Positions 2,625 to 55,763 of a stretch of DNA of 64,000 bases are shown here, piece by piece. Origin of the DNA: a virus (lineage: Duplodnaviria; Caudoviricetes); IMG/VR virus record IMGVR_UViG_2845860650_000005, positions 55,422-119,421 of that record. The stretch is one strand, 5' to 3'. The notes under the pieces are model-generated. The model was not told the origin of the DNA. It saw only the letters and a list, made by a program, of their open reading frames with translations, and did not search any database. The translations under genes were made by a program, and so were the position numbers. The stretch's first letter is position 1, and every line of letters starts with the position of its first letter.

Positions 2625-4265
2625 CTATTTTGCAAATAAATCTAACGTACCAATGTGTAACAGTTCTAAGTCCTTGTCATCTTGGCTAAATCCTTTAAGA
2701 GGAGCGCCAATCTTTAGGCGAAAATAGTTGAACATTAATTTAACATTGTGACGCTTTGATAACATACCTCCATTCTTGTCAATAACTCTGTTAAGCCAAT
2801 CAGGATTAGATTTATTCCAATCAACTTTTGATAGCTTATTCAATGCGTTTATCATTCCGTTGATATTTCCCGAAAGCCCAGCACCCTCTCTTAAATATTT
2901 GCCCAGTTCTCCTAATGCATGAATGGTCACGCCATGAGAAGCAATGGTTAATTCTCTGACTTCATCGGGAGTAGAATCTCCATCTAATACCTGTTGCCAA
3001 GGTGCGATCGCATCTATCAAACTTTCCCAAAAAGCCTGACAAAACTTGAAATCAAAATCTTCATTCTTTCCCGGTTTCATAAGCACTGTAGCATCATACA
3101 AATGCTTATAGATAAGCAATTTATCTGACTTTTTACCTAATGAACTTTTCTCTGTTTCTGCAAATTGTACAAATAGTGGAATGCTTGACAAGACGCTATT
3201 AGCAAATTCTCCTATTGGCGAATCGTTGTAGAACGTCGTCAAATTCTTGCTAACTGATTTTGCTTCTGAATTTACCTCCCTAAATATCTTCTTCCTTAAT
3301 TCCAGCGATGCATTAACAATCAAGTCCACCGAAATAAATTCAGCTTTGTACTTGATTCCATCGTCACTTTGCATTATCTGACGAATCGCCCAAGTGCGAT
3401 GCTGTCCGTCAATCAAACGGAACAATACAGTTAACGGCACTTCTAAAATGCCGTTGAATGCATCTTTTTTAAAAGGCGTAAATATGGCATTTTTATCTAT
3501 CTCTATAGATGCCACCATTGGGGGAAAGTAATAGTTTGGGTTACTAAGAATATAGTTTTTGATTTTCTTAGCATGGGAGGGATTAAGAGCGCGGTTCGCT
3601 CTTTGGCTTGCTGGCAAGTTCGGGTCTTCGTACATGAAAAACTGAGCGACAAACTGCCAAGGTACAGACGCCTGATAAATTACAAGTCCGTCGCTACGCA
3701 CTCGGCGTAAAACCGAAAGCGTGAGGTTTGATTCCATCATTAACTCCTTTGCTTTTTGAGTAGCTGTAACAACTCCTGTTGATTTGCGCTTTTTCTCCTG
3801 ATGTGGCGGAATATCTAAGCCCAGTTGTTCAATCAATGCATCAATTTTTTGAGTAGTTTTATCCCATACCTCAGTGGGGGTAAGATTTTGATGCAAGTCG
3901 TCAATTCGGATATCTCGGCTTAGAGAACAAATAGCTAAAGCCTTAATCCCGACTTGTATTGGGCGCTCGTGTACGGAAACCCAAAACTCTCGATAGCTGG
4001 CTTCTTTATGGGTTGTCTTGTCTATGGGCGAAGAATTAGCAGTTATTTGGGTTGGGCGGCTAATAAGTTCCAACTTAGAAGGTGAAAAATCAACTCCCAA
4101 ATCCCTGCCACGGTTGTTTTTTGGAGCTATACCAGTACGAAACATTACTCTAATTGAGTAATCTAAATTATCTGTGACGTGTCCGGTGATGCCAAAATAT
4201 TTGGAATTTCGGTCGATGACTTTGACCTTATCGTACATCTGAAATATTTCAGATTTCATGGACAA
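2625..4265 (-). CDS. DGQHR-domain / DndB-family protein with N-terminal KOW/SH3-like extension
   Basis: RANRALN, YYFPPM, LIDGQHR, FREVN, SHGVTIHALG, LSKVDWNKSNPDW. Confidence 0.85.
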   Translation of the reverse strand: MSMKSEIFQMYDKVKVIDRNSKYFGITGHVTDNLDYSIRVMFRTGIAPKNNRGRDLGVDFSPSKLELISRPTQITANSSPIDKTTHKEASYREFWVSVHERPIQVGIKALAICSLSRDIRIDDLHQNLTPTEVWDKTTQKIDALIEQLGLDIPPHQEKKRKSTGVVTATQKAKELMMESNLTLSVLRRVRSDGLVIYQASVPWQFVAQFFMYEDPNLPASQRANRALNPSHAKKIKNYILSNPNYYFPPMVASIEIDKNAIFTPFKKDAFNGILEVPLTVLFRLIDGQHRTWAIRQIMQSDDGIKYKAEFISVDLIVNASLELRKKIFREVNSEAKSVSKNLTTFYNDSPIGEFANSVLSSIPLFVQFAETEKSSLGKKSDKLLIYKHLYDATVLMKPGKNEDFDFKFCQAFWESLIDAIAPWQQVLDGDSTPDEVRELTIASHGVTIHALGELGKYLREGAGLSGNINGMINALNKLSKVDWNKSNPDWLNRVIDKNGGMLSKRHNVKLMFNYFRLKIGAPLKGFSQDDKDLELLHIGTLDLFAK

Positions 4266-13949: not shown

Positions 13950-14374
13950 TAATTCGTAATTCGTAATTCGTAATTCGTAATTATTTTTCTTTTAGTTTTT
14001 TGGTGGAAGAGACTAGGATTTTGCCGATTTCGTTGGCTTCTTGTAGAAGCAACTCGAATTTTTGTTTTTCTACTAGTCCCGATTCAATTAAGATTTCTAG
14101 CCAGTATTGGGTTTCTCTGGCTTCCTTAAGTGCAATTTCTAGTTTGTTGATAAAATCTTTATCAGACTGCGCTGATTGTGCTTCTCTGACGTTTGCCCCA
14201 ATTGAAGTACCAGAACGCAATAGTTGTCTTGATAACGTTCTTGTAACCCCAGACTTTTCATCAAGAAAGCTGCAAGCTTTCACAATCCTAATCGCAAACG
14301 CCTTCGTTCTATCTGTAATACTAATTTGATTGCTTGTCATAAATTACGAATTACGAATTACGAATTACGAATTA
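13950..14374. mobile_element. STRR (AATTCGT)n inverted-repeat-bounded cassette carrying a four-helix-bundle gene
   Basis: (AATTCGT)4 at 13951-13980 and (ACGAATT)4 at 14342-14374 exactly bracket the ORF. Confidence 0.7.
13981..14340 (-). CDS. four-helix-bundle protein (23S rRNA IVS / Avd-like family)
   Basis: QLLRSGTSIGANVREAQSAQSDKDFINKLEIALKEARETQYWL. Confidence 0.92.
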   Translation of the reverse strand: MTSNQISITDRTKAFAIRIVKACSFLDEKSGVTRTLSRQLLRSGTSIGANVREAQSAQSDKDFINKLEIALKEARETQYWLEILIESGLVEKQKFELLLQEANEIGKILVSSTKKLKEK

Positions 14375-15937
14375 TCCCGGTATTTTGTCAAATCTATAAG
14401 CCTGAAATCTGCTATTGATTGTTCCAGCTTGAATAATTCCATCACCTCGTCCCTGGAGCGAGGTTACAACTTCGCCGTGCCTGTGAAGCACCATTCGCCC
14501 ATCAATCGCTTCGATACAGCGAAAGGCTATTCGTGCTGGTAGATTTGCTCTGAGGTCTGGCGGTAATCCTTGGGGGTCTTCTTTAGAGCGTTTAGAGCCG
14601 TGTTGCAACCCAATTACTATATGAATCCTTAATCCCCGCCCTCTGCGTGCGACTTCACAAAGTTGATCGTCGTAAAGTTTACGAAGTTTATCGTCGAAAG
14701 GCACAGTTCCTTTATATTCGTCAACTAACAAAATCCAAGGTTGCTGTGCAGCTAATTCAGACTTATTCATTGAGTTGCGGCGATCGCACTCCTGGTAATA
14801 TTCGCCAACATATTCAAAAGTTTTGCCCATATCATTGGCGGTAATTGTAGGGAAGCGCTCGGCAAAATCTTCATAATCACTAACTTTACCACCACAGATA
14901 TCTACTCTTCCTCCCTGAGCCAAAAGGCAATAAGCAGCAGAGCGTAGAAAATTAGATTTACCAGAACCAGTTGTGCCGACTACCAACACCTGGGGAGTAT
15001 CTTCGTTGCCCAAATCGATAACCACTTCCCCATCAAGGGACTGTCCCAAAACTATTAATCTTCCCCCTTGCTGCCACTCACGAATTGGGAAGTCATAAAA
15101 TGTGCGTTCGGTTGCTCCTAATCCCACCTCCACTGCTACTTGTTCGCTACCAAAAACGTACATGGGAAATTCTTCATCCTTTCCCAGGGAAACTTTTGCA
15201 GCTTTTTTCCACTTCGGCAGTAAGTGGTAATCCACCGTCCGCAGACTAAAAATTAAACGCTGGTAACTCGGTGCTTTATCAATCTTCAAACATTCGGTTT
15301 TCAATCCCACAACCGCAGCTGCTTTTTGTAGTTGAATCGTTGTATCTGATTGTTGTTGAATTTGTAGCGCTGCTGCTTGCGATATCGCGGTAGTTTGGGG
15401 AACTGATTGAGCGATGAATTGTTGCTCTTGTAATTCCGTTTGTCGATTTTGAGCAATCAATTTTGCTTGCTCCATTTGCATTTGAGCATCGGAAACCGCA
15501 GTCAAAACATCTCCAATAGACGCACCATTTTGAACCATTCCCAGCGCCATCTGCACCACCGGGCCGTTCTTCCCAGTTAGTTGTAGCAGCTGTGTAAATA
15601 TTGGTGCTGTTTGTTCTAACAATACCAACTGTCTTTCAATAGATTTATCTGCCTGTTCGTTGGCAAGTTTTGACTCGGCGGCGGATTGCAAATACTGTAA
15701 TTGCTCTTCTACTTGGGTATCTTTCAGTACTCGTAAAGTATCTTCTGTGCGCTCGATGTCTTCGTACTTTTTACCCATTCCTTGGAGCATACAAATGGCA
15801 TTAACTCCAAATGCGATCGCGGCGACATTCCTCGGATAAAATAACCAAGGCTCATTTTTATTAGCAGATAACACAAACACCACCGCGAGCGCACCTTGCC
15901 CTATAATTCCTAACCAACGAAAAAACATTTCGACCAC
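14372..15937 (-). CDS. FtsK/SpoIIIE-family ATPase with two N-terminal TM helices
   Basis: Walker A GTTGSGKS, Walker B LLVDE, ARRGRGLRIH, LQGRGDG. Confidence 0.88.
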   Translation of the reverse strand: MVEMFFRWLGIIGQGALAVVFVLSANKNEPWLFYPRNVAAIAFGVNAICMLQGMGKKYEDIERTEDTLRVLKDTQVEEQLQYLQSAAESKLANEQADKSIERQLVLLEQTAPIFTQLLQLTGKNGPVVQMALGMVQNGASIGDVLTAVSDAQMQMEQAKLIAQNRQTELQEQQFIAQSVPQTTAISQAAALQIQQQSDTTIQLQKAAAVVGLKTECLKIDKAPSYQRLIFSLRTVDYHLLPKWKKAAKVSLGKDEEFPMYVFGSEQVAVEVGLGATERTFYDFPIREWQQGGRLIVLGQSLDGEVVIDLGNEDTPQVLVVGTTGSGKSNFLRSAAYCLLAQGGRVDICGGKVSDYEDFAERFPTITANDMGKTFEYVGEYYQECDRRNSMNKSELAAQQPWILLVDEYKGTVPFDDKLRKLYDDQLCEVARRGRGLRIHIVIGLQHGSKRSKEDPQGLPPDLRANLPARIAFRCIEAIDGRMVLHRHGEVVTSLQGRGDGIIQAGTINSRFQAYRFDKIPG

Positions 15938-39929: not shown

Positions 39930-40417
39930 AGTTTTGGAAACTTCCTAATTTGCAAATCTTCAAGAAATTCTGACACATCGCCGCCTTTTCTATCGCATAA
40001 TTTAACTTTGTATTAGTAACTGCTACACCATCGATGTAAGGCAAGGAATTAACAACATTTTCACCCAATTGTTTCACAAATACTGGAACACTTGCATCTT
40101 GGCACTGCTTGACAAGCGATCGCACCCAGTCAATATGGTTTGAATGCAATCGACCAAGTTTACTACCGCGTTGGCGTAGCCCGCCGGAGGCATCGCACAT
40201 CCAAACGGCAATGATTCAAAAGTTGATTGCTCTTTAGGAAAGTACTTGTTTTTCATATAAGTCCAGGCATTTTTTTGCTCGGAAGTCTTTTTCTTAGCAG
40301 CACAAACAATAAGCGACCGCGATAATTTGTACCCCAAGAACGTGTTTCATATCGCTTCACTTCCATACCAATTAAAGTTGCCCAAGGTTGCCATAATGAT
40401 AGTGCTTTAATTTCCAT
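39926..40417 (-). pseudogene. fused remnants: ASCH-domain N-terminus + DUF5131 (Gp37/Gp68) C-terminus
   Basis: MEIKALSLWQPWATLI...YETRSW (frameshift) ...LPFG; then IDWVRSLVKQCQDASVPVFVKQLG and DRKGGDVSEF..DLQIRKFP in other frames. Confidence 0.75.
40168..40196. repeat. 21-nt SDR5-type element inserted in a HIP1 site
   Basis: GCG|TTGGCGTAGCCCGCCGGAGGC|ATCGC. Confidence 0.8.
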
Positions 40418-40428
40418 TTTTATCCTCA

Positions 40429-40635
40429 CTAGTGATTAACAATTCCTTCAATAACTCCAGACAACATAGCTTGATGTTTAATCAAATTAAACGCAATGCC
40501 AGATATTCCATTACTGGGTTCAAAAATAGGGTCTTCTTCTAGGCTTTGAATCTCTAGCTGAATAGCTGCTTGCATTTCCAGAAGTGCCCTTTTATATTGT
40601 CTTTTCCTGCTAGCTACAGGGTCGTAATCGCTCAT
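40429..40635 (-). CDS. small hypothetical protein
   Basis: AAGGAG RBS. Confidence 0.6.
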   Translation of the reverse strand: MSDYDPVASRKRQYKRALLEMQAAIQLEIQSLEEDPIFEPSNGISGIAFNLIKHQAMLSGVIEGIVNH

Positions 40636-40653
40636 TTGATTCTCCTTTGTGGA

Positions 40654-41307
40654 CTAAACTCCACTGATTTCATGTGACCAAGCAATTTCTTGTACAATAT
40701 CTTCTGCCTGTTTTTCACTAATAGCAGAATCAGGAGTTTTATAAAACCCAATGATTTGCCCTTTGGGACGCACAATAATGCGCTGTGTGGTCAGTTGCTT
40801 ATCCCAAACAAAGCATGAAATAGTGATGTTATCAGTTGCCCACCGAATACCCCTCTTATCCTTGCGAAAGCAGTACCGTGGATATACAAGAACTAAGTTC
40901 GGTGGGTTTTTCTCTAAGAATTCTGCCCGGTCGTCGCAGGGTTCCAAAAAACTAGTCAACAAAAATGCTGCAACGCCTACTTTTGCTCTCGAATGAGCAT
41001 TTTTGATAATAGGTGCTGCAAATTCGGCATACGGTGGATTGGTGACAATCCAATCGGCGTCGGGAAACTCATCCCACGACTTAGATAGCGTTACATCAAG
41101 ATGGTAATCAGCTTGTTTTTTGGGGTCAATATCATTCGTCCAGATACCTCTGGTGTGGGGCCACACATTTAGTAGTGATGCGATCGCACCCCCACCTACA
41201 CATGGTTCTCCCACTACTCCTTTAATTTTCACGTACCGAAGTAGTTCAGTAGTGAACCAAGATGGTGACTCGTAAAAGTTTAATGGATGTCTCTCAAGTA
41301 TTTTCAT
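40654..41307 (-). CDS. small phage amino-DNA methyltransferase
   Basis: FYESP, EPCVGGGAI, IVTNPPY. Confidence 0.85.
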   Translation of the reverse strand: MKILERHPLNFYESPSWFTTELLRYVKIKGVVGEPCVGGGAIASLLNVWPHTRGIWTNDIDPKKQADYHLDVTLSKSWDEFPDADWIVTNPPYAEFAAPIIKNAHSRAKVGVAAFLLTSFLEPCDDRAEFLEKNPPNLVLVYPRYCFRKDKRGIRWATDNITISCFVWDKQLTTQRIIVRPKGQIIGFYKTPDSAISEKQAEDIVQEIAWSHEISGV

Positions 41308-41860
41308 TCAATGATTCCTTGGATGGTGGTAAATAAAACGTGTATGGAGTTTCATAACCAAACTCCAAACGATAATATTTGATTGCCCATTGCTCCCGTA
41401 AGCGTTGATTGGGAGCAATTTCTAGCAGTAGTTCTCGATACAAATTCTTGACTTCCGTTGTTGCGTCTTGAAACAATACGTTTTGAAACCATTCAACTCT
41501 AGGACGCATGTAGGCACGGGCAAAGCGCTCTATACATGTAGAAAACCACATTCCATTTTTTTCTGATTTAGCAATTCCAAAAGTCTGCTTCCAAGACTGA
41601 GCAAATTCTTTTTCAAGGTTTTTAATTCGTTTATTCCAATATTTCTCCCAGTATTCGTCATTGATATCTTTAGAATCATTAGCACAAGTTTTTAGCAAAT
41701 CATAAGCTGAGTCAATTGCTATAAAATCTTCAGATTTACCTCCGCAATCTGGATGTGTAAGCAAACATAGTTTTCGATAAGCAGTTTTTAGTTCTCCCAT
41801 AGAAAAAGGAGACTTCAATTCTAAAATTTTAATAGCCTGATTGATTGTCATTTTTGTCAT
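41294..41860 (-). CDS. J-domain (DnaJ-like) protein
   Basis: LKTAYRKL...HPD.GG..EDF..I..AY. Confidence 0.85.
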   Translation of the reverse strand: MTKMTINQAIKILELKSPFSMGELKTAYRKLCLLTHPDCGGKSEDFIAIDSAYDLLKTCANDSKDINDEYWEKYWNKRIKNLEKEFAQSWKQTFGIAKSEKNGMWFSTCIERFARAYMRPRVEWFQNVLFQDATTEVKNLYRELLLEIAPNQRLREQWAIKYYRLEFGYETPYTFYLPPSKESLNENT

Positions 41861-42059
41861 TGGACGCTCCTTTTCGTTACCCATTTATCCCAATACTCGC
41901 GTTCAGTTGCAGGGTGCAAATCAAAATATCTTTGGCATATAGCCCAGCTAACTTCCAATCCTGGGGAAACAATTCCTTCTAAGGTATAAAGTTCAGAGTA
42001 GCGGCTGCTAGTGAACTTCTTGCAGCGATCGCACCTTTCTCTATACTGTTTACTACCGC

Positions 42060-42626
42060 TCATTTTTTGCCATTCCCGTAATGCTTGTTCCAAATATCAT
42101 CAACTGGGAACATAGATTTTTTTGAGTTATCAGATTTAACAGATTCAATTATTGATAAGCGGCTTTCTAAATCTTCATATTTTTGAAGTAGTTGAGCATT
42201 TTGTTCTATCAGACTCTCTATTTTACTTCCTACTTCTTGAAGCTTGTTTTCTAATTGCTCTAGTTCTGCAATTTTTGATTGGCAATCATCAGTAGAATTT
42301 GGTAGATTCAGGTATTGAGTAATTGCAGCAATCATTACCTGGGTACGCGTCCGACTAGTCAACTTGGCATTATTATCAACTGCTTCCCAAAGTTCTTGAG
42401 GTACGCGTCCTGACAAAAAAAGTTTCTCTGAAGCTATCATAATTGTACCTAATTCTTCCAATAAATCTGCTCTAGTTAATCCCTCATTTTGTGCTAATTC
42501 ACCTAATATTTCCCAAATAGAATCTGTTACGCGGATACTTCTGACTATGCGTAATTCGTTTGATTTAGGTGCAAATTTCCCATTTTCATTACGTCCCTGC
42601 ATCATCACATTTCTTAAACTCCACAA
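42060..42626 (-). CDS. tandem RHH + coiled-coil protein
   Basis: RSIRVTDSIWE; SGRVPQELWEAV. Confidence 0.65.
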   Translation of the reverse strand: MWSLRNVMMQGRNENGKFAPKSNELRIVRSIRVTDSIWEILGELAQNEGLTRADLLEELGTIMIASEKLFLSGRVPQELWEAVDNNAKLTSRTRTQVMIAAITQYLNLPNSTDDCQSKIAELEQLENKLQEVGSKIESLIEQNAQLLQKYEDLESRLSIIESVKSDNSKKSMFPVDDIWNKHYGNGKK

Positions 42627-43281
42627 CCCAAATCCAAGGATCTATAGCCCAACTATTTGCCCCATTAACCGATTCCCAAAGACTCTGAAAAGATGTTCTT
42701 GGACGTGTATAAACAAAAGCCCCTGAATGATAGTCTTTATATAATTCTCTTGCTGGTTGGTTATAGCTTGCATCCCTGAAAACTTTTTCAACTCCTTCTC
42801 TAGTCGCACTTATTTGGTTAATATCCCACAGCTTTTCTACCCGGATATTCAGTATTTCAAGCCAAATACGAGCAGCTTGTTTGGGCATATGGATAGAAGG
42901 TTTCCACGCACCATTTACTGCTACAAGTTTCTCAAGTTCTGGTACAGAGGGGGAACATTTATAGGACATGTCCGCTTTATAAGCGAAACACACAGCATCA
43001 TCAGATGGCGCTTGTCTCCAAGTTTCACGCACCCAAAGCAAATCCCCTGGTTGTCCGTAAGGACAAGGAATATCAACCAATTCTCCTGTTGTTAAATTCT
43101 TGAATTTAGCGACTGTCACCAAGTCCTTTTTTGGTTTTTCTAAAATCAATGCTTCAAGGAAGAAGTTATCAGGCGCTTTATTGATGTAATCAAGCGATCG
43201 CAATCTGCGAGTTTCCGATTTGGAACCTTGTAAAATTGCACAGACCATATCACCATTAAATAGTAAAGGACGCTCTTTCAT
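42589..43281 (-). CDS. conserved phage protein (ASCH/PUA-like MKERPxLF family)
   Basis: MKERPLLFNGDMV.AIL.G.K..TRR, PYGQPGD.LWVRETW, WKPSIHMP. Confidence 0.8.
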   Translation of the reverse strand: MKERPLLFNGDMVCAILQGSKSETRRLRSLDYINKAPDNFFLEALILEKPKKDLVTVAKFKNLTTGELVDIPCPYGQPGDLLWVRETWRQAPSDDAVCFAYKADMSYKCSPSVPELEKLVAVNGAWKPSIHMPKQAARIWLEILNIRVEKLWDINQISATREGVEKVFRDASYNQPARELYKDYHSGAFVYTRPRTSFQSLWESVNGANSWAIDPWIWVVEFKKCDDAGT

Positions 43282-43562
43282 AAAATAGTAATAGTTGCAA
43301 CTAAAGTTTTTTCTCCATCACTTAGTTCACCTATTTCTTCCCAAGCTTGTTTGGTAAAAAATAAGTGTCTTTTTGCAAAGCCTAGTTCAGTTAGATCTTG
43401 GATTTCCCAAATACCAGGAATACCTTGGTAAAACCTGACTAAATTCGTCCCAGATAAATAAATATCGTCCGATAACTGGTACAAATCCTGTAAAGTTTTA
43501 ATTTCAGCAATATGCCCTAAAACAACTTCACTCGATTCAAATCCGTAAAATCTTCTTTTCAT
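43278..43562 (-). CDS. hypothetical protein
   Basis: 94 aa, ATGA overlaps. Confidence 0.55.
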   Translation of the reverse strand: MKRRFYGFESSEVVLGHIAEIKTLQDLYQLSDDIYLSGTNLVRFYQGIPGIWEIQDLTELGFAKRHLFFTKQAWEEIGELSDGEKTLVATITIL

Positions 43563-43659
43563 TCTTTGATTAAAATTGGGTATATCTGCTTAGCAATGGT
43601 TTCAAATTTATCGCCATCTGGGTAGGGGCGTGGAATATCTTTACCTTGTTCATAGCAAA

Positions 43660-43885
43660 CACTTTTTAGGTGGGTTGAAAGGATAGAGCAACAGATTCTT
43701 TGTTTGAAGAGCTTGATTTTAGCTCTAATATTGAAACTGATTAATTACCCTATAACAAAAGAAGAGTTCTGCCATACTGTATGTATGGCAGGGTGTTGTA
43801 ATGACATACAATTTGTCAACGCGGACAATAATTTGGCACACGGACATTAATCTGTCAACGCGGACAAATAATTTGGCAATCGACA
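43660..43885 (-). mobile_element. orphan left end of a type V-K CAST (Tn7-like) transposon
   Basis: minus strand TGTCGATT then four G(A/C)CA-N6-7-TGTC TnsB-type sites incl. GACAGATTAATGTC; homing crRNA ~200 nt inside. Confidence 0.8.
43668..43698 (+). CRISPR. isolated truncated type V-K repeat with 17-nt tRNA-homing spacer
   Basis: AGGTGGGTTGAAAG (3' end of the Cas12k repeat) + GATAGAGCAACAGATTC (tRNA D-arm/anticodon-stem-like). Confidence 0.75.
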
Positions 43886-43927
43886 GCAATTGCTATCAAA
43901 GCAATTTCAGTTTCCAAGGAAATTTGG

Positions 43928-45064
43928 TTAGTCTGCATAATTTTCCTCACCAAGGATTGATTGAATTAAGGCGTACCAGGCAGGAGCTTTTTTACCGTTC
44001 ACTGGGGCCAATTTATTGAATTCTTGCCACAGTTGATCGTCTGTTGCGTGTGGTAGTTTTTTCTTGGCCCAGGCGATCGCATCGTGAGGAGTTTTCCACT
44101 TATGCCATTCTGAAGCAGGTTCAAGCATCTTTATCGGCTCAACCACCTGAACATCGACATCTATATAATCAATAGCCCTTGCATCTCCCCGCAGCAGACC
44201 CTTCACCACAGACTGAGATACTGGAAGCTGTCGGGCTTGATACTCGTTAAATTCAATCCAAGCCCTACGCAGGGCCATATAGTTGGGGTCAATTTGAATT
44301 GAAATTGCCCAAATTTTTTTGTCTGCCTTCTTCCCAGTCCGCAGTCCATTTTCAAAAATCGGAATTTTAGTCTTAATCTCAGTCCTACTGAGAATGAATG
44401 GAACTTTGTGTTTGTACTGGGAACAAGGAAAGGGAGCATTGGTAATGCTTCCTAGCATCTCTTTGAACTCTCTTAATTTGATATCCAGATAACTAATATC
44501 CTCCAGGGAATGGAGGGTCATTTGCCCAGGAATCATCAAGTCGTTATCTAGCAATTCCCGGACATAAAAATGCAGCTTCCCCTCAGCTTTGCATCCATGT
44601 TGGCACTGCATAGATAACGATTGCCCCTGCATGGGACAAGGCGTATCGTGACAATCTACAAGTTGGTGATACTGCCCTTTTTTGTCCTGGAGCATCACAG
44701 ATTTTTTAAGGATATTGGTGCGATCGCACACCAATTGCAGACCTGAGCCTTTATAGCTAGACATTGAAGTTGCAAAAGTTCTATCCACCTCGTCGAACGG
44801 CAGATATATATTTAGGGCTTGAGTCAAAAAATCTCCATTGCTATCGGGATTTCCATAACTTTTGGAAAAAATGGTAGAGGCTTCTCTATTGGTGGTAACT
44901 AGGCGGATATTACTACCTAAGTCTTTCCCGTAGCCCTCGTATTCTTTTCCCCCATCAGTTCGATTTTTGACCTTACGACTGCCTTTGAATGCAGACACTT
45001 CTATCCTGCCTAAAGGATTGAAATTTGCATCATCATAACGGTTTGTCAAACCAGAAATAGGCAT
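43928..45064 (-). CDS. Gp3-like recombination protein (recombination directionality factor-like family)
   Basis: IYLPFD, L.LVCD, C...CP...C..GCK.EG.L.F, PFILSR. Confidence 0.65.
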   Translation of the reverse strand: MPISGLTNRYDDANFNPLGRIEVSAFKGSRKVKNRTDGGKEYEGYGKDLGSNIRLVTTNREASTIFSKSYGNPDSNGDFLTQALNIYLPFDEVDRTFATSMSSYKGSGLQLVCDRTNILKKSVMLQDKKGQYHQLVDCHDTPCPMQGQSLSMQCQHGCKAEGKLHFYVRELLDNDLMIPGQMTLHSLEDISYLDIKLREFKEMLGSITNAPFPCSQYKHKVPFILSRTEIKTKIPIFENGLRTGKKADKKIWAISIQIDPNYMALRRAWIEFNEYQARQLPVSQSVVKGLLRGDARAIDYIDVDVQVVEPIKMLEPASEWHKWKTPHDAIAWAKKKLPHATDDQLWQEFNKLAPVNGKKAPAWYALIQSILGEENYAD

Positions 45065-45203
45065 ATATTAGTTATGTATGAATGATTTATTAGAACTCTA
45101 CTAATCACAATATCATATTGTAGGTGATATTCGTCATTTTATATATGATATTATTTGCTGAAAGCCAGAAATATATGCAGCATTCAGCTTGATAGGAGAT
45201 TCT

Positions 45204-45449
45204 ATGCGGATTGCTCGGACAACTTACATTGATATTGAAGGATTGGGGGACAGGATAAGAACAGCAAGGAAGCTTGATAAAAGGACACTTAAGCAAATTG
45301 CAAAAGAAGCTGGACTGTCCGAAGGGCACTGGCACGTTATCGAAAAAGAGCAGGGCGTGATACCAGAAGAAACTTTATTGAGGATGCAAGAAGTCCTTCA
45401 AGTTAATTTAGGATTCCAGGAAGAATTTGATAAATTATCAAAAAGTTAA
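45204..45449 (+). CDS. XRE-family HTH (Cro-like)
   Basis: LGDRIRTARK...LKQIAKEAGLS..HW..IE; AGGAG RBS. Confidence 0.85.
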   Translation: MRIARTTYIDIEGLGDRIRTARKLDKRTLKQIAKEAGLSEGHWHVIEKEQGVIPEETLLRMQEVLQVNLGFQEEFDKLSKS

Positions 45450-45503
45450 TTTTTTTACCGCCGTAATATTTTTAGCCAAATTCCCACATTCAGCAGCACA
45501 AAC

Positions 45504-45986
45504 ATGAACGAGTTACACGAAAGACTTCAAGAGAGCAGGATTAAAGCGCTGACGCCAGTTATTGCAGATGTTCTCTGTAGCTGTGATTTGAACGGATACA
45601 GAATAGATGAAGTGTTAATTGTACTAAGCAACTACGTCAAGGAGCGCAAATTAAGTGCGGCGGTGAGGCTTTTGGAAGAAGCCGTTAATGTTGTTCAAAT
45701 CCAACAGCAAAAAAACCACAATTTACTGCAATTAGCTGAGATTCAAGAACAATTGCAAGAAAATCGCATTGAAGCACTGACGCCAGTCTTTGTTGATGTT
45801 CTTTGCATTGTAGAAGCCAACGGCTACACGATTGATGAAGTTGTTATTGTGCTGACAAAATATGCTAGAAAGCGAGATTTGAGCGCAGCTGTTCGACTGC
45901 TCGAAGATGCAGCAACCGCTATCCAGCAACAATATCAACAATCAAATGTAGCAGTTTTACCTGCTCTGTCTTATCGAGAGATCTGA
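45504..45986 (+). CDS. protein made of two ~70-aa tandem repeats
   Basis: LQE.RI.ALTPV..DVLC....NGY.IDEV.IVL..Y...R.LSAAVRLLE twice. Confidence 0.75.
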   Translation: MNELHERLQESRIKALTPVIADVLCSCDLNGYRIDEVLIVLSNYVKERKLSAAVRLLEEAVNVVQIQQQKNHNLLQLAEIQEQLQENRIEALTPVFVDVLCIVEANGYTIDEVVIVLTKYARKRDLSAAVRLLEDAATAIQQQYQQSNVAVLPALSYREI

Positions 45987-46257
45987 TACTGCTAAGCATG
46001 TCTTCAGCAACTTTTGGTTTTGGATGATGATGTTGTTGTTCCTCCCCTTTGACCACTGCTAAAAGTTGCAGGACATCACCTTGCCCCCAAGCCTCGGCGA
46101 TCGCAATCAAGTTATCTATAGTAGGCCAAGTCCTAGCCTGCTCCCAGTTGCGTATTGTAGTTTGAGATACGCCTAAACGCATACCAAGATCCTCTTGAGA
46201 GTATTTTCTTTGGATGCGAATTTCCTGGACTATATCAGCTAATTTTTGCTTTTCCAC
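45919..46257 (-). CDS. XRE-family repressor-like HTH protein
   Basis: YSQEDLG.RLGVSQTTIRNWEQAR..P. Confidence 0.85.
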   Translation of the reverse strand: MEKQKLADIVQEIRIQRKYSQEDLGMRLGVSQTTIRNWEQARTWPTIDNLIAIAEAWGQGDVLQLLAVVKGEEQQHHHPKPKVAEDMLSSIRSLDKTEQVKLLHLIVDIVAG

Positions 46258-46328
46258 GTCTTAATTACCCAATTTTGTACAAATATTGCATATAAAAAAT
46301 AAACAGTGTTATTAGCAACATGCTGATG

Positions 46329-46353
46329 TATCATCATGTATGTACTGATGATA
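46329..46353. promoter_or_regulatory. candidate operator
   Basis: perfect IR TATCATCA-N9-TGATGATA between the repressor and the replication operon. Confidence 0.5.
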
Positions 46354-46498
46354 AAAAAGCAGCATGGCCCTAAACAGATTTAGGGCTGAGTTTGCTTTGA
46401 CTTTATATGGGAACTTATATGTACCAAAATAAACGTCCATTTGGCAAGAGTACTCGAACTGTGCGCTTACACAATTCTCCACAGATTACAAATTCGCT

Positions 46499-46864
46499 AT
46501 GAAAAATATTGCAAGCTCACGAAACATGAGTGTATACTGTGTTTGTAGCAGAATAGATTATTTTTTATGGCAACTAAATGCAACACTCCGAAGTATAGAG
46601 GACTTATTCCAAGGAAACCTACTTGGAATCTTGGAGAAACCACATGCATCAGGATACCGAAAAAAATTAAAGACCAAGTTCTCCAGTTCGCCAGAGAACT
46701 GGACGAACAACAACAATAATACAACCCCAAAATTAAAATCCCCAAACACTGCTTGCGACAGTTTTGGGGAATGGGGTACTCCTATCAAATCAAACCTAAC
46801 TAGGAGCATTACTTATGAATATAGCCGGCTGTGCCCCAAAACTGCAACTGGGGAAAGGCCATGA
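46499..46864 (+). CDS. hypothetical protein
   Basis: ATGA overlap with Dam-like gene. Confidence 0.45.
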   Translation: MKNIASSRNMSVYCVCSRIDYFLWQLNATLRSIEDLFQGNLLGILEKPHASGYRKKLKTKFSSSPENWTNNNNNTTPKLKSPNTACDSFGEWGTPIKSNLTRSITYEYSRLCPKTATGERP

Positions 46865-47709
46865 ATAACAGCATCCCCGCGTTGCGGTATTTCGGGGGCA
46901 AGCATCGGGACGCTGCCAGAATAATTTCCCATCTCCCCCCACACGAAATATATTGCGAGGTTTTTGGAGGCGGGGCCTCTGTGCTGCTACAAAAAACCCC
47001 CTCAGATTTTGAGGTTTATAACGACCTCAGCAAAGACGTAACCAATTTTTTCCGAGTTTTGCGCGATCGCCAAGATGAATTAATTCGCGCAATTGAGCTT
47101 ACTCCCTACAGCCGCGACGAATGGAAGAGGTCTTTCGAGATTGCAGACGACCCAGTAGAAGCAGCAAGGCGTTTATATGTCCGCAGTTGGCAATCCTATT
47201 CTGCCGATGCCATTGCTTACAAAAATTCTGGGTGGAGGTTCCAATACCAGAAGCACCAGGGCTTCAATAATGTAGTCGCCAATTTTAACAGAGTAAATCA
47301 TCTGTGGGAATTGGCAGCACGTTTCAAGCAGGTGCAAATTGAAAACGATTCGGCAATAGCGGTTATAGAGCGCTATGGGCGTAATCCAAATTGCCTGATT
47401 TATTGCGACCCCCCATATGTCCATTCAACAAGAACTGAATCGGGCAATTATCTTTACGAGATGTCTGATGCAGAACATAAAAAATTGGCCGAGTCTCTAC
47501 ATTCGGCCAAGGCAATGGTAGTTCTGTCTGGGTACGACTGCGAATTGTACCAAGAACTTTATAAAGATTGGCGATTAATCCAATGGACGACATTAATCAA
47601 CGGCAACAAGCGTACTGCCACTGAATCGTTATGGATTTCGCCAAATTGTGAGGATAAAAACAAGCTTCCTTTACTTGCTTTTCTCAATTCATCAGAGATG
47701 ACGATATGA
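46861..47709 (+). CDS. D12-class (Dam-like) N6-adenine DNA methyltransferase
   Basis: RYFGGK, EVFGGGASV, VYNDL, YCDPPY. Confidence 0.93.
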   Translation: MNNSIPALRYFGGKHRDAARIISHLPPHEIYCEVFGGGASVLLQKTPSDFEVYNDLSKDVTNFFRVLRDRQDELIRAIELTPYSRDEWKRSFEIADDPVEAARRLYVRSWQSYSADAIAYKNSGWRFQYQKHQGFNNVVANFNRVNHLWELAARFKQVQIENDSAIAVIERYGRNPNCLIYCDPPYVHSTRTESGNYLYEMSDAEHKKLAESLHSAKAMVVLSGYDCELYQELYKDWRLIQWTTLINGNKRTATESLWISPNCEDKNKLPLLAFLNSSEMTI

Positions 47710-49650: not shown

Positions 49651-50136
49651 ATGCAATTACTTCAAATCAATACTCTAAGAAAGCCTAAATATCAAGTATC
49701 AATCAACAAAATTGTTATCAAAGGCGATTGGGAAATTCAAATCGATTACGAACTACCATCGCAAGACACGGAACGTAAAAATGTGAAACTGTTTTGTAAA
49801 GAACGCCCCACAAAACAGTTTATAGAAGCTTTTGAAAAACTAAAGCCCAACCTCTATACTATTTGCGGATTAGATAGGAAGATTTGGGAGCCAGGGCGAA
49901 TTACTTCTATTCGCTTCAAAGAACAAGAACAGGGCACAATGCTGTCGATTACGCTTAGAGTTGTGTCAGAAGAAGCAATAGCAATTGCTGGCACTGAAGA
50001 ACTTTACCCCAAGGGTGAATTCTTAGATAAAGTCAACAACTTAATTGCTGAATTGGAGGACTACATAAATGGTGTAAGGGAAGCCCAACAAATGACGATA
50101 GATGGTTATTTAGAAGGTCAAAAGGATAATGGCTAA
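49651..50136 (+). CDS. hypothetical protein
   Basis: 161 aa. Confidence 0.7.
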   Translation: MQLLQINTLRKPKYQVSINKIVIKGDWEIQIDYELPSQDTERKNVKLFCKERPTKQFIEAFEKLKPNLYTICGLDRKIWEPGRITSIRFKEQEQGTMLSITLRVVSEEAIAIAGTEELYPKGEFLDKVNNLIAELEDYINGVREAQQMTIDGYLEGQKDNG

Positions 50137-50476
50137 TGGAACCTTCCTTGCTTTATTTTTGGCTATCTTCTCAAGACTTTGCCCGTGTTTTGAGGGGTTG
50201 GAATGATTTTACTTCCAGATAACCGAATTCAGATTGGAACACGATGTATTTTCTATGAAAGGACTAGCAATATTCGTATATCGCATCTATATGCGATTAT
50301 TGGCGATCGCTCTTACTGGACGAATCACATTTGACATGAAACTACCGCATTTGAAACAACAAATGCGGTAGTGGTAACCATAATTTATCGACATGGAATA
50401 AGCTTTGTATGACTTATTGTAGCATTAATCAATTGAATATTCATGGCTTTTACTCAAATTTACAAGAGGTGGAGTC

Positions 50477-52285: not shown

Positions 52286-52636
52286 ATGGATGAAAATTAC
52301 TTACAACAATACTTCATTCAGATTGCCCAACACACCTTGCATGAATGGAACTACTGGAGAAAGCAAAAAACAGAAGTCGTTGGGTGTGTTGCTGATGCTA
52401 AAAAGCGGTGGGAACAATACAATAAACTGCGATCGCAAGATGAAATCGCGTCTATTAAATGGTTGATTGACTACCACTTTTGCATTCCCAATCAGCAAAC
52501 TCCATCTTCTGATTTACAAAGCCTACAAATTTACATTGAAAAGCAATCATCAGATTTTGTAAAAGCTTCTATTAAAACCGCACTACCTTTAATTGATTGG
52601 AGTGCAATTGCGCTTGAATTGGGGGAATATGTATGA
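52286..52636 (+). CDS. hypothetical protein
   Basis: 116 aa, overlaps next start. Confidence 0.65.
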   Translation: MDENYLQQYFIQIAQHTLHEWNYWRKQKTEVVGCVADAKKRWEQYNKLRSQDEIASIKWLIDYHFCIPNQQTPSSDLQSLQIYIEKQSSDFVKASIKTALPLIDWSAIALELGEYV

Positions 52637-55600
52637 TTTACTAGTTCAATTAAATAGCGGATATAGCCAATGGACTTTAGATGCTCATTTTCTGGTAGAG
52701 GCTTTATGCCAGAACTTTATCCGTCCTCAACACTTCAAAACCCACCTTCACGAATTTATTTTAGAGTCCTATGGAATTAAATCTTCTTGCCTAATTCCAG
52801 ACTTACATTGTTTTGTCAATGCCCAAAGTAATACTTATGGTTATCAAGGGCATTCTGAAGTCAATAATATTGCTGGGTCAATTCAATTGTGTCCAGTTCG
52901 TTCTAAAAAGGCTGGCGATGGAAGTCGTAAAATCATAGTCAAGCGTCCCGATTGCAAACATCTTAATTTCAAAGAGTGCAGGAATTTATATGACTCTGGA
53001 GCTTTCCCAGAAGTTGTTGCCGATGCCAGAGTAACTCCTGAAGTATCTTTACAAAGACAACTGGATACTCTTGCTCAACTTCCGGAATTCAAAGAAACCC
53101 TACTTGTGTCTTACGACCGCCTAATTGACGAAAAACACCACCAAGGAAACCGGATAAAACAGCGTTGGAGTGTAGAAGAAGGAGAATTAGCGGTTGCCCA
53201 AACTGTAGAAGCTGCTGCTTACCTCAATTCTCAAAGGTCAAGACTGCAAAACTACACCCTAGTTCAATCCTGTCAAGGTGTTGATGCCCAGCAATATCTC
53301 AGATGTGTTGAACAAGTCCTATCCTACTGTCAAAAAGGGGATGTTCTGGGTCTGGGCGGATGGTGTATCTTGGGACGGCAACCTAGTTATCTACAAACCT
53401 TTTGGGAAACCATCAATTTAGTAATCCCCCTTGTTGCTTCCTCTGGCATCACCAAAATCCACATCTTTGGATGTACTTGGTACAAACCTAAAAAGTACCA
53501 CCCTTTACCCCCACTACCACCTTTGCTTTGGTTGTGCGATCGCCACTATATTTCACTCAGCACCGATGGACGTTCCCCCATTGGCAATGCCTTATGGAAG
53601 GACGGATGGCAATCTGCTGGTGCAACATTCCCCTATTGGCGGCATAACTTAGCTTGGGTCAAATCAGAATTGGCAACCCTGCGCGACTCTCCCCAGTACC
53701 AAGCACCACCAGGATATACAGAAGCACCACGTTTATTTATCATGCCCAATAAATTCTTAGAGAAAAGTTTAGAGTCCCCTAAACTACGCGATCGCGTCAC
53801 TATTGAACGTTGCGATATCAAGTGGGCCCAAGACCTTGCAACTAAAAACCATTATTTACATCGTCCCATTCATCCCCTATCTTTACCTTTTGCCTATGCC
53901 ATCAAGCTTGATAGCGAAACGGTCGGGACGATAATTATGAGTACGCCACACTTTACCAAGAAAAAGGACTTATTTGGTTATGACGGGTTACCCTCTAAAT
54001 GGCAAGTCTTACAAATAGCTAGACTTTGGTTAGACCCGAAAGTGCAAGTTGCTCAAACTAACGGACACGCCAATTGTATAGCGAGTTGTGCGATCGCTAA
54101 AATGCTCAAGCGAGTAAACGCCGATTGGTTAGAGCATCACCCCCCAAAATTCCCAGAACAACCCCACCACATTGAATTAATCTTCTCTTATGCAGATACG
54201 GGAGTAGGGCATCAAGGAACCATATATAAAGCCTCAAACTTCATCCAGTGGGATGTAACCACTAATAATCGGGGACGCCATACTAAAACAAAAACCGAAA
54301 CCACAGAAAAAATACTGTATGTCTACAAACTACCCCAGGCTAAAACCCCAATTGTTGCACCAAATATATTCTTAGAGAAAGAAACTGCTCAAAATAGCCA
54401 ACAAGCAGGATGCCTTTATCAATATCTAGAATCCAAAAAGCTAAAAGACGGTTCCACCATCGAATACCCCAAAGTTGTTGGAGAGCGCGACCCCAATAAC
54501 CCCCAACACTGGAGATGGGGATTTAACTGGAAGGAAAAGCAAGCAGGGAAATGGAAGGGTAAAAGTATTGGGTCTATTCCCCATAGTGCGATCGCCCAAA
54601 TTCGCACAATGCAAGAGCAAGGAGCAAAGCGAGAAGAGATTGTTAGCTTTGTCCTTCAAGCTAAAGAACAAATCAAAACTCCTAACCCATTACTCCTTAC
54701 TCCTAACCCATTATCAACGACCACTCCCATTGCTGTTGTCTTGTTCGCTGGAGGCGGCGGCATTGAGTCCGGTATGGTTGAAGCTGGAATTCGCCCAGTG
54801 GTTGCAGTGGAGTGCGATCCAACTAAACCGAAGCTTAGTAGTGCGATCGCTGACTGCCACCAACTCAACTTTCGACAATATGGTTGTAAAGTTGTTCGCC
54901 AAACCGTTCAACAAGTTGCTGCATCTAACTTTATCGGACTCCCTTTGCATCCAGACTACTTCCACGCTTCTTTAGTTTGTTCCAGATTCAGCAAATCTTA
55001 CACAGCAAAAGCTGGGCATAGAGGTGAAAGCCAAGAAGACATATCGGCAGCACAAGCGGTAGGGAAAGCCATTACAAAACTACTTCCCGCAGTATTTACT
55101 TTGGAAAATGTTCCTGGCTATATTGAAAGTCAAAGCTTTGAAACTGTTGTTAATGCCTTAAATGAAAGCGGGTATTCAGTCACTTACGAAATTATCGACT
55201 TTGCAGACTACGGACTACCTCAATCGCGCAAACGAGTTATCTTAACTGCTGGGTTAGGCTTCAATATCCTCCTACCCCCACCATCAAATAAGAGGATGGG
55301 GTGGTATGAAGCAGTTGCTTACCTCATCCCCACCATGCCCGATTCCAAACTATTAACTTCTCAACAAAAAGTAGTCGATGAGTTTTTGCTTTCCAACCCA
55401 CCCCAACCCCTACTCATCCAACGCACCGGCATCCGCGACAAAAAACCAAAATATAAACCAGGACATTTACCTTGTAATACCATAGTGCGATCGCAATTCA
55501 CCGATGACAAAGGGCACAACCGTACAAAGTTTGCCGATATCTGGTTACCTAATGGTATGGTGAAGTCCCTAACAATACAAGCAGCAGCAATTTTACAAGG

Positions 55601-55763
55601 ATTTCCCAGTTGGTATGAATTCCCTGCTGAAGTTGCCACCGCTGGTTCAATTATTGGTTACTCTGTTCCACCTAGCTTTGCAAAGCTGCTATTTGTCCAC
55701 TGCGAACAAGAAAGGCAGAAGTACGAAGGCAGAGGGCAGAAGGCAGAAGGAGTAAGGGCTTAA
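52629..55763 (+). CDS. multidomain DNA-modification protein: TGT/DpdA-like + Mom-like + small domain + C5-cytosine methyltransferase
   Basis: DSGAF, QSCQG, GLGG, IHIFG, STDG; NHYL, IARLW, FSYAD...GH.GTIYKASNF; LFAGGGG, SLVCSRFS, LENVPG, PQSRKR, LQGFP, IGYSVPP. Confidence 0.8.
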   Translation: MYDLLVQLNSGYSQWTLDAHFLVEALCQNFIRPQHFKTHLHEFILESYGIKSSCLIPDLHCFVNAQSNTYGYQGHSEVNNIAGSIQLCPVRSKKAGDGSRKIIVKRPDCKHLNFKECRNLYDSGAFPEVVADARVTPEVSLQRQLDTLAQLPEFKETLLVSYDRLIDEKHHQGNRIKQRWSVEEGELAVAQTVEAAAYLNSQRSRLQNYTLVQSCQGVDAQQYLRCVEQVLSYCQKGDVLGLGGWCILGRQPSYLQTFWETINLVIPLVASSGITKIHIFGCTWYKPKKYHPLPPLPPLLWLCDRHYISLSTDGRSPIGNALWKDGWQSAGATFPYWRHNLAWVKSELATLRDSPQYQAPPGYTEAPRLFIMPNKFLEKSLESPKLRDRVTIERCDIKWAQDLATKNHYLHRPIHPLSLPFAYAIKLDSETVGTIIMSTPHFTKKKDLFGYDGLPSKWQVLQIARLWLDPKVQVAQTNGHANCIASCAIAKMLKRVNADWLEHHPPKFPEQPHHIELIFSYADTGVGHQGTIYKASNFIQWDVTTNNRGRHTKTKTETTEKILYVYKLPQAKTPIVAPNIFLEKETAQNSQQAGCLYQYLESKKLKDGSTIEYPKVVGERDPNNPQHWRWGFNWKEKQAGKWKGKSIGSIPHSAIAQIRTMQEQGAKREEIVSFVLQAKEQIKTPNPLLLTPNPLSTTTPIAVVLFAGGGGIESGMVEAGIRPVVAVECDPTKPKLSSAIADCHQLNFRQYGCKVVRQTVQQVAASNFIGLPLHPDYFHASLVCSRFSKSYTAKAGHRGESQEDISAAQAVGKAITKLLPAVFTLENVPGYIESQSFETVVNALNESGYSVTYEIIDFADYGLPQSRKRVILTAGLGFNILLPPPSNKRMGWYEAVAYLIPTMPDSKLLTSQQKVVDEFLLSNPPQPLLIQRTGIRDKKPKYKPGHLPCNTIVRSQFTDDKGHNRTKFADIWLPNGMVKSLTIQAAAILQGFPSWYEFPAEVATAGSIIGYSVPPSFAKLLFVHCEQERQKYEGRGQKAEGVRA

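Follow-up and report, generated by a model that had tools for sequence, protein, structure and literature searches.

The left end of a type V-K CRISPR-associated transposon, with its anchor guide, is found as a remnant within a phage gene

CRISPR-associated transposons (CASTs) are thought to use the spacers of their arrays for hopping into phages and plasmids, and thus to spread between cells. The left end (LE) of the cyanobacterial type V-K elements, with its delocalised homing CRISPR RNA (crRNA), is said to have been described by Saito and colleagues in 2021. In the part of Ziemann et al. (2023, PMC9938897) available to us, the V-K layout comprises a truncated repeat (R*) of ~12 nucleotides (nt) and a 17-nt anchor spacer beside the LE, a GTN protospacer-adjacent motif (PAM), and tnsB-tnsC-tniQ at the right end. 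Here we report that positions 43647-43885 (minus strand, 239 nt) of a 64,000-nt stretch of viral DNA, called the window throughout (G000:C29:14705-78704, i.e. part of contig C29 of a 9-Mb host genome assembly), are the remnant of a V-K CAST LE located within a small gene of a cyanobacterial phage. We consider it very probable that a V-K CAST transposed into the phage, that one illegitimate recombination then deleted most of it, and that the remnant is the resulting scar.

Read on the minus strand from 43885, the remnant runs TGTCGATT-GCCAAATTATTTGTC-CGCGTT-GACAGATTAATGTC-CGTGT-GCCAAATTATTGTC-CGCGTT-GACAAATTGTATGTC, exactly the TGT tip and repeat layout described in an initial annotation made from the window's letters alone; the limits proposed there, 43660-43885, have to be extended to 43647. 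The four LE repeats are related, each 14-15 nt long with 5-6 nt between them, and a repeat finder puts three of them in a single family with a 19-20 nt spacing. Aligned with 10 native LEs, the remnant shows the terminal TGT followed by tandem TnsB-type repeats that characterises V-K LEs. Moreover, R* corresponds to the 3' end of V-K repeats (the array repeats end in GGCGGGTTGAAAG) and is oriented toward the LE, and the distance from the anchor spacer to the tip is 187 nt, compared with 154-198 nt in the 14 native loci scored. The name "left end" chosen in the initial annotation is the appropriate one with regard to the layout given in the available text of PMC9938897, where the LE follows the tRNA and R* with its 17-nt spacer reads toward the LE. 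The components of the remnant are as follows.

43647-43885, minus strand: entire remnant, V-K CAST LE and anchor-crRNA module, 239 nt (93-98% identity to tRNA-Arg CAST LEs)
43863-43885, minus strand: LE tip TGTCGATT and first TnsB-type repeat GCCAAATTATTTGTC (sequence; repeat family)
43843-43856, minus strand: TnsB-type repeat 2, GACAGATTAATGTC (family D1; kept in the LE alignment)
43824-43837, minus strand: TnsB-type repeat 3, GCCAAATTATTGTC (repeat finder; LE alignment)
43803-43817, minus strand: TnsB-type repeat 4, GACAAATTGTATGTC (family D2; LE alignment)
43769-43791, minus strand: terminator-like hairpin, 9-bp stem and T-rich tail (terminator scan; stem kept in related LEs)
43682-43698, plus strand: anchor (homing) spacer GATAGAGCAACAGATTC, 17 nt (17/17 match to tRNA-Arg(CCG))
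43668-43681, plus strand: R*, truncated V-K repeat AGGTGGGTTGAAAG, reading toward the LE tip (identical 14-mer at the anchors on contigs C40 and C37)
43647-43667, plus strand: CAST interior, final 21 nt upstream of R* (window compared with both native CAST and the intact phage allele)

The resemblance of this segment to CAST LEs is far beyond chance. Among 389 genomes of the family that were searched, nine from the same genus contain it at 93-98% identity over 225-243 nt, which bears out the similarity to CAST ends claimed at the outset; weaker copies occur in further genomes of the family, and every match ends at 43647. The tip TGTCGATT, or a one-letter variant of it, lies directly 3' of tRNA-Arg(CCG) in 13 of the 15 related loci examined, the other two giving no match to the tip pattern used. 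Cas12k (NF038191, above cut-off) is encoded within ~1 kb of the related LE in three of the four relatives tested (G278, G192 and G262), and none was found near the LE in the fourth (G169). Furthermore, a 30-mer spanning R* and the spacer is present letter for letter at 20 loci of other named cyanobacterial genomes, belonging to the genera Nostoc, Stigonema, Brasilonema, Desmonostoc, Aulosira, Tolypothrix and Calothrix; 16 of these loci adjoin tRNA-Arg, and the remaining four are rearranged or elsewhere. A contig from a public run (X1) is identical to the remnant over 231 nt, and the contigs from four public runs cover just 43647-43885 before entering tRNA-Arg or CAST interior. Two of these four runs are RNA libraries, whose contigs show neither strand nor transcription and represent native CASTs of other organisms. 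Displaced tRNA-Arg anchor units were also seen in other genomes (L071, L072, L063): in one case the LE is of the TGTACA type and the site is not a tRNA, in another no LE occurs within 400 nt, and the third adjoins a tRNA-Arg that lacks its 5' half, protospacer included.

Other collections were also searched: the 30-mer and the 23-nt LE tip are absent from the viral contigs, phage records give no match to window 43278-44400, plasmid records give none to the 239-nt remnant, and neither junction sequence occurs in the metagenome contigs. Within the window, GGTGGGTTGAAAG has a single exact copy.

The location of the remnant could be defined by comparison with an uninterrupted allele, as the initial annotation had proposed. 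Viral contig L083 contains the intact gene, 138 codons long, from MQTNQISLETEMALIAIA to …DEGKDIPRPYPDGDKFEAIAQQIYPILIKASEQ, and chromosomal homologues of 137-138 amino acids (aa) in two genomes confirm this as the normal length of the gene; searches with the intact homologues returned nothing from Pfam and nothing significant from PHROGs. Window 46491-43886 aligns with L083 at 87.6% identity up to the base before the LE tip, while window 43647-43258 aligns with L083 3946-4350, the alignment resuming 266 nt farther on. The net change is therefore the replacement of 266 nt of L083 (3680-3945) by the 239-nt remnant, and the small gene is indeed interrupted, although not merely split as first thought. 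Three features flank the remnant.

43914-43950, minus strand: candidate PAM GTG (43950-43948) and protospacer (from 43947), PAM to LE 62 nt
43886-43938, minus strand: 5' stump of the phage gene, codons 1-18, MQTNQISLETEIALIAIA (intact allele in viral contig L083)
43559-43646, minus strand: 3' stump of the phage gene, …EQGKDIPRPYPDGDKFETIAKQIYPILIKE* (tblastn, 70% over 27 aa to L044-L046)

At the outer (left) junction, phage homology ends at 43886 and CAST homology begins at 43885. At the inner (right) junction, the window equals native CASTs through GCTATGAAC(A) and the phage allele thereafter. CAST homology stops there, 21 nt upstream of R*: agreement extends through …GTGTTTGCTATGAAC(A), after which native CASTs continue toward the array, and the intact allele at this border reads …AGCGATGAAGGC…. 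With L083 standing in for the true parent phage, the inner join appears to lie within a 6-7-nt microhomology, ATGAAC(A). A non-autonomous mini-transposon does not account for these borders: no inverted copy of the tip is found nearby and the inner boundary falls in CAST interior. ATTGC and TTTGC at the two borders were suggestive of the 5-bp target duplication of such a mini-element, but the idea was abandoned as the intact allele shows the 266-nt loss.

The two junctions also bear on whether the segment might have been gained from a chromosomal CAST by recombination, illegitimate or homologous, in a transduction-like manner, or might be an assembly chimera, either of which we regard as extremely improbable. 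The right junction is an illegitimate, microhomology-type join, many short dispersed repeats are common to phage and host, and no public reads cover the junctions, all of which would suit such an origin. The left junction, however, falls exactly at the terminal transposon nucleotide, and no outside tRNA or spacer sequence was carried along; an outer junction at the exact tip is, to judge from the sequence, the mark of transposition and not of recombinational pick-up. As to a chimera, the other copies in the genome are only 88-89% identical, over 75 and 44 nt, and since no other close copy exists in the genome there is no repeat from which an assembler could have built one. In addition, the remnant is flanked by collinear phage sequences.

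The carrier of the remnant is a phage, as the initial annotation had assumed. Genes in the window match PHROGs families for the terminase large subunit, the head maturation protease and the major head protein, several DNA methyltransferases and a Mom-like domain are encoded as well, and portal and other phage families follow farther along C29. The viral contig with the uninterrupted allele, 100,096 nt long and estimated to be 83% complete, is collinear with the whole window at 65-89% identity. Contig C29 is 119,490 nt long and its first and last 243 nt are identical. On this ground the phage genome is probably circular, or else terminally redundant, with a size of ~119.2 kb, and not an integrated prophage. 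No tRNA gene was found in the window or on C29.

The rest of the CAST is gone, and the absence of tns genes, cas12k and right end noted initially holds for the whole of C29. Using the proteins of the CAST on contig C40 of the same genome as tblastn queries, no homologue of Cas12k, TnsB, TnsC or TniQ was detected on C29, the only matches being on C40 itself, apart from a weak TnsB-like match on C75. No second CAST end or right end was found on C29, and end-like sequence in the genome is confined to the C29 LE and both C40 ends. Unlike a complete autonomous V-K CAST, the remnant thus lacks cas12k, tracrRNA (trans-activating crRNA), array, tniQ-tnsC-tnsB and right end.

Other features of C29 were recorded alongside. 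It carries a ParB-like gene (window 2625-4265) and an FtsK-like gene (window 14372-15937). In an open reading frame (ORF) of 1056 aa at window 52593-55763 (plus strand), a Mom-like DNA-modification domain occurs together with a C5 cytosine methyltransferase domain, and the surrounding region has two or more additional methyltransferase genes (40654-41307 and 46831-47709); the anti-restriction load of the phage is therefore heavy. Dozens of 30-120-nt stretches of C29 are 90-100% identical to sequences scattered on host contigs, with exact matches that include 179 nt at the start of C114 and 86 nt on C96; these look like short dispersed repeats common to phage and host.

Insertion of a CAST followed by deletion of most of it, the history put forward in the initial annotation, fits the exact junction at the LE tip and the 266 nt deleted along with the element. 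The inserting CAST would have come from a lineage homing to tRNA-Arg(CCG). Its LE would have joined phage DNA at codon 18 of the small accessory gene, 62 nt past a GTG PAM, with PAM and LE oriented as is usual. The insertion may have been directed by a spacer that can no longer be recognised, or may have been unguided. V-K CASTs are 20-30 kb long. They lack TnsA and form cointegrates through replicative transposition, according to the accessible part of PMC11406308. This mode of transposition, together with the length of the element, would have made the phage unable to keep the whole CAST. One recombination, joining the ATGAAC(A) located 21 nt upstream of R* to a similar sequence that lies 266 nt farther along the phage gene, could then have removed the array, tracrRNA, cas12k, cargo, tniQ-tnsC-tnsB and right end, together with ~88 codons of the gene. 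The route may have been a deletion internal to a simple insertion or, if chromosome and phage had formed a cointegrate, an aberrant excision from it as a circle. Both would give the same product: the complete protein-binding region of the LE, the inward terminator, and R* with the 17-nt anchor guide would have been kept. Given the public contig identical over 231 nt, the lack of a CAST of the same lineage in the genome and the untouched tRNA-Arg site, the event was probably recent and probably took place in another host.

Several observations weigh against this history or limit parts of it. The GTG is faced by the LE, and its distance of 62 nt from the tip fits the PAM-to-LE distance of 56-64 nt measured in 14 automatically scored native loci, but by our own estimate a GTN would occur at 56-64 nt by chance at ~4 of 10 sites, which leaves RNA guidance of the first insertion unproven. 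The initial annotation proposed to look for a V-K spacer matching a protospacer outside the end, and the outcome was negative: when 19 spacer-like segments of the arrays on C40 and C37, among them the anchors, were compared with the whole genome, none matched the site outside the LE, and no matching spacer for the 80-nt flank was found in the 389 family genomes. Exact matches of 21 nt to the flank did recur; they cover the start of a conserved dehydrogenase-like gene with its ribosome-binding site and were discarded as spacers. Furthermore, the genome holds no donor CAST of the same lineage and its tRNA-Arg site is scarless, which makes the host of the event uncertain. The target duplication and the right end are gone, so that a full insertion is inferred from a single junction. 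Finally, no available public run covers the flanks of the remnant, and the structure rests on one assembly, since the junctions are absent from metagenome contigs and the remnant from viral contigs.

The anchor guide nevertheless has an identifiable target in the host. The resemblance of the spacer to a tRNA-Arg next to a GTN PAM, noticed in the initial annotation, was borne out: the spacer matches the host tRNA-Arg(CCG) at C69:25402 (minus strand) in 17/17 positions, with a GTG PAM in front. The match falls in the D-arm and anticodon stem, and is the sole exact match in the 9-Mb genome besides the spacer itself. A V-K element is expected to lie 46-82 nt past the PAM of its own anchor protospacer; the remnant does not, as the matching tRNA is on C69 and not on C29. 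Within 700 nt downstream of the host tRNA-Arg(CCG) there is neither a CAST end nor a scar, and the homing site is hence empty.

The host has one complete V-K CAST, at C40:303554-331119 (L019, L020), with Cas12k (NF038191, E = 2.8e-294), a 17-repeat array and type I restriction-modification cargo. Its far end holds a 562-aa transposase-family ORF and two unclassified ORFs, which from position and order are taken as tnsB-tnsC-tniQ. At the array-proximal end the first 27 nt are identical to the end of the remnant, with 88% identity over 75 nt, and the C40 LE has its own unit of AGGTGGGTTGAAAG and spacer. Between cas12k and the array, the tracrRNA region (~305455-305465) contains AACCCACCT, a perfect 9-nt partner of AGGTGGGTT in R* (-15.6 kcal/mol).

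Further observations concern the CASTs of this genome. The C40 CAST does not lie at a tRNA: its LE is ~40 nt past mutL, whose 3' end is matched by the anchor spacer (20/21, GTA PAM, 64 nt to the LE). In another genome (L075), two nested LE tips occupy this site. A second CAST remnant in the genome, at C37:61758-62146 (L021), has a TGTACA-type LE, two array repeats, and R* with a 17-nt spacer that matches the adjacent tRNA; no cas12k or tns genes were found on C37. The segment AACCCACCT pairs perfectly with R* (GGTGGG) and with one mismatch with the array repeats (GGCGGG), which hints, from base pairing as predicted, that the homing guide may pair better with the tracrRNA than the array guides do.

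These elements raise the possibility that the remnant is active, either as a homing address in trans for the host Cas12k or through target immunity in cis via its TnsB sites; we consider any such activity unlikely. In the first case, a phage transcript of R* and the spacer would enter the host Cas12k together with the C40 tracrRNA, giving the machinery a second homing address at tRNA-Arg(CCG), much as solitary repeat-spacer units would use a host effector in trans. The components would be at hand: R* is identical to that of the host CAST anchor, AACCCACCT of the C40 tracrRNA region is predicted to pair perfectly with AGGTGGGTT (-15.6 kcal/mol), the spacer matches its target 17/17 with a GTG PAM, the target site is free, and Cas12k, TnsB, TnsC and TniQ are all encoded by the host, as one full set. 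The 30-mer of R* and spacer is also letter-identical to that of 20 native loci, but such identity speaks for recency and not for selection. Against this, the array and its leader, the simplest source of co-transcription of the anchor, are deleted (the array reads toward the LE in the portion of PMC9938897 consulted), a consensus scan of the plus strand at 43300-43668 showed no promoter-like site upstream of R*, and this strand is antisense to phage genes. Moreover, the tRNA-Arg site is unoccupied despite the presence together of guide and machinery, the CAST may be repressed by a MerR-type gene beside cas12k (no family was found for it; the position is as in the part of PMC9938897 available), and no benefit to the phage is evident. 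The suggestion in the initial annotation that the relic could guide a host Cas12k is hence borne out as regards the identical R* and the complementary tracrRNA segment, and not as regards a promoter, for which the simple scan gave nothing; a working guide of this kind appears distinctly unlikely.

Contacts between the host CRISPR systems and the phage bear on the second case, and those of the CAST array also speak for the proposed transposition into the phage. Spacer 14 (of 16) of the C40 array matches C29:113156-113193 over 38/38 nt, in a phrog_31840 gene with GCA at the PAM position; the region of this protospacer has no match in the related viral contig (estimated 83% complete). Spacer 13 matches window 41255-41287 (plus strand) at 27/33 nt with a GTG PAM, at a distance of 2.4 kb from the remnant and within a gene for a DNA methyltransferase, whereas shuffled spacers (30 per spacer) matched at most 25 of 33. 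In addition, a defence-type array at C40:~150000-150800, whose 37-nt repeat ends in GGGATTGAAAC, includes a spacer matching window 50119-50152 (plus strand) at 34/34 nt with GTC on the PAM side, and is in this respect perfectly self-targeting against a resident phage.

The retained cluster of TnsB repeats might shield the phage through cis target immunity, by analogy with Tn7 and Mu. The whole block of LE repeats has been kept and its first 27 nt equal those of the C40 LE, so that the resident TnsB should bind it; 2 of the 16 C40 array spacers match the phage, one of them with a GTG PAM 2.4 kb from the remnant; and V-K CASTs "seem to possess target immunity", in the words of the accessible part of PMC11406308. 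Against this, the remnant is fully accounted for as a by-product of deletion, and, being unique to this phage (it is absent from the related viral contig and from viral and metagenome contigs), it gives no sign of selective retention. We hold a protective role to be very improbable.

The present role of the scar is most likely that of a mutation only. The frame of the broken gene enters the LE and stops after 27 residues, so the gene is cut to this length, and the stop of the 3' stump, which overlaps the ATG of the next gene, is uncoupled from that start. The LE hairpin is directed inward from the LE, which is the direction of the phage operon, and a terminator-like structure placed there might affect the operon. 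Its folding energy of -17.3 kcal/mol (z = -4.19) was equalled by 1 of 200 shuffles. As regards covariation in the hairpin, an alignment inspected by eye shows just G-U changes and a few broken pairs, and an Rfam search of 40000-47000 returned a single sub-threshold chance hit.

As a scar, the locus is a rare natural record of a V-K CAST jump into a virus, in which the exact tip is joined to a phage gene at a PAM-appropriate distance and the carrier phage is matched by spacers of both the host CAST array and a defence array. The deletion product is of the kind left by an aberrantly resolved cointegrate or by a packaging-limited phage. The cell, in which a compatible solo guide coexists with a complete CAST and an unoccupied target site, also makes a small natural test system. 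Were the guide to act in trans, the phage would reprogramme the landing site of a host transposon; were the repeats to confer immunity in cis, it would be shielded from a CAST whose array holds two spacers to it.

The LE and anchor architecture is known, as are decayed CASTs, including "degenerated" cas12k loci in cyanobacterial chromosomes (PMC9938897, in the part available). What is new is the location on a phage genome and the clean comparison of the gene before and after the event. Our literature search, whose coverage did not include Saito et al. 2021 or any supplementary tables, retrieved no account of a V-K CAST end within the genome of a phage. Like the LEs of AnCAST/ShCAST-type elements, the remnant has a TGT tip, tandem TnsB-type repeats, R* and a 17-nt spacer reading toward the LE, with a GTN PAM on the tRNA target and ~190 nt from spacer to tip. 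Unlike these elements, it lies away from the tRNA target, within a phage gene, and is without array, tracrRNA, cas12k, cargo, tniQ-tnsC-tnsB and right end. Decayed chromosomal CASTs (C37:61758-62146, L063, L071, L072, L075) resemble it in having kept LE-proximal parts (LE, R*, a few repeats), and together they show that the LE region is often the surviving part of a decayed CAST. Most of these CASTs occupy chromosomal attachment sites (L071 a non-tRNA site), whereas the remnant lies on a phage genome and has a datable single-step deletion with an intact allele for comparison.

Two other known processes come close. Aberrant excision gives rise to specialised transducing phages, and the cointegrates of replicative transposition can be resolved aberrantly; both share with our locus one illegitimate recombination, foreign DNA at the junction and loss of own DNA. 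In contrast to specialised transducing phages, the remnant starts at a transposon tip inside the phage and not at the phage attachment site, and the cointegrate route would apply only if the proposed history is correct. Solitary repeat-spacer units or mini-arrays on phages and plasmids, a subject reviewed in PMC11656645, use a host effector in trans and usually target competing elements. The remnant is similar in being a repeat fragment with one spacer on a mobile element devoid of cas genes, in a host with a compatible effector, and its R* is predicted to be compatible with the effector and tracrRNA of that host. It differs in that its guide is directed to a host tRNA gene for homing and has remained on the phage as the by-product of a deletion.

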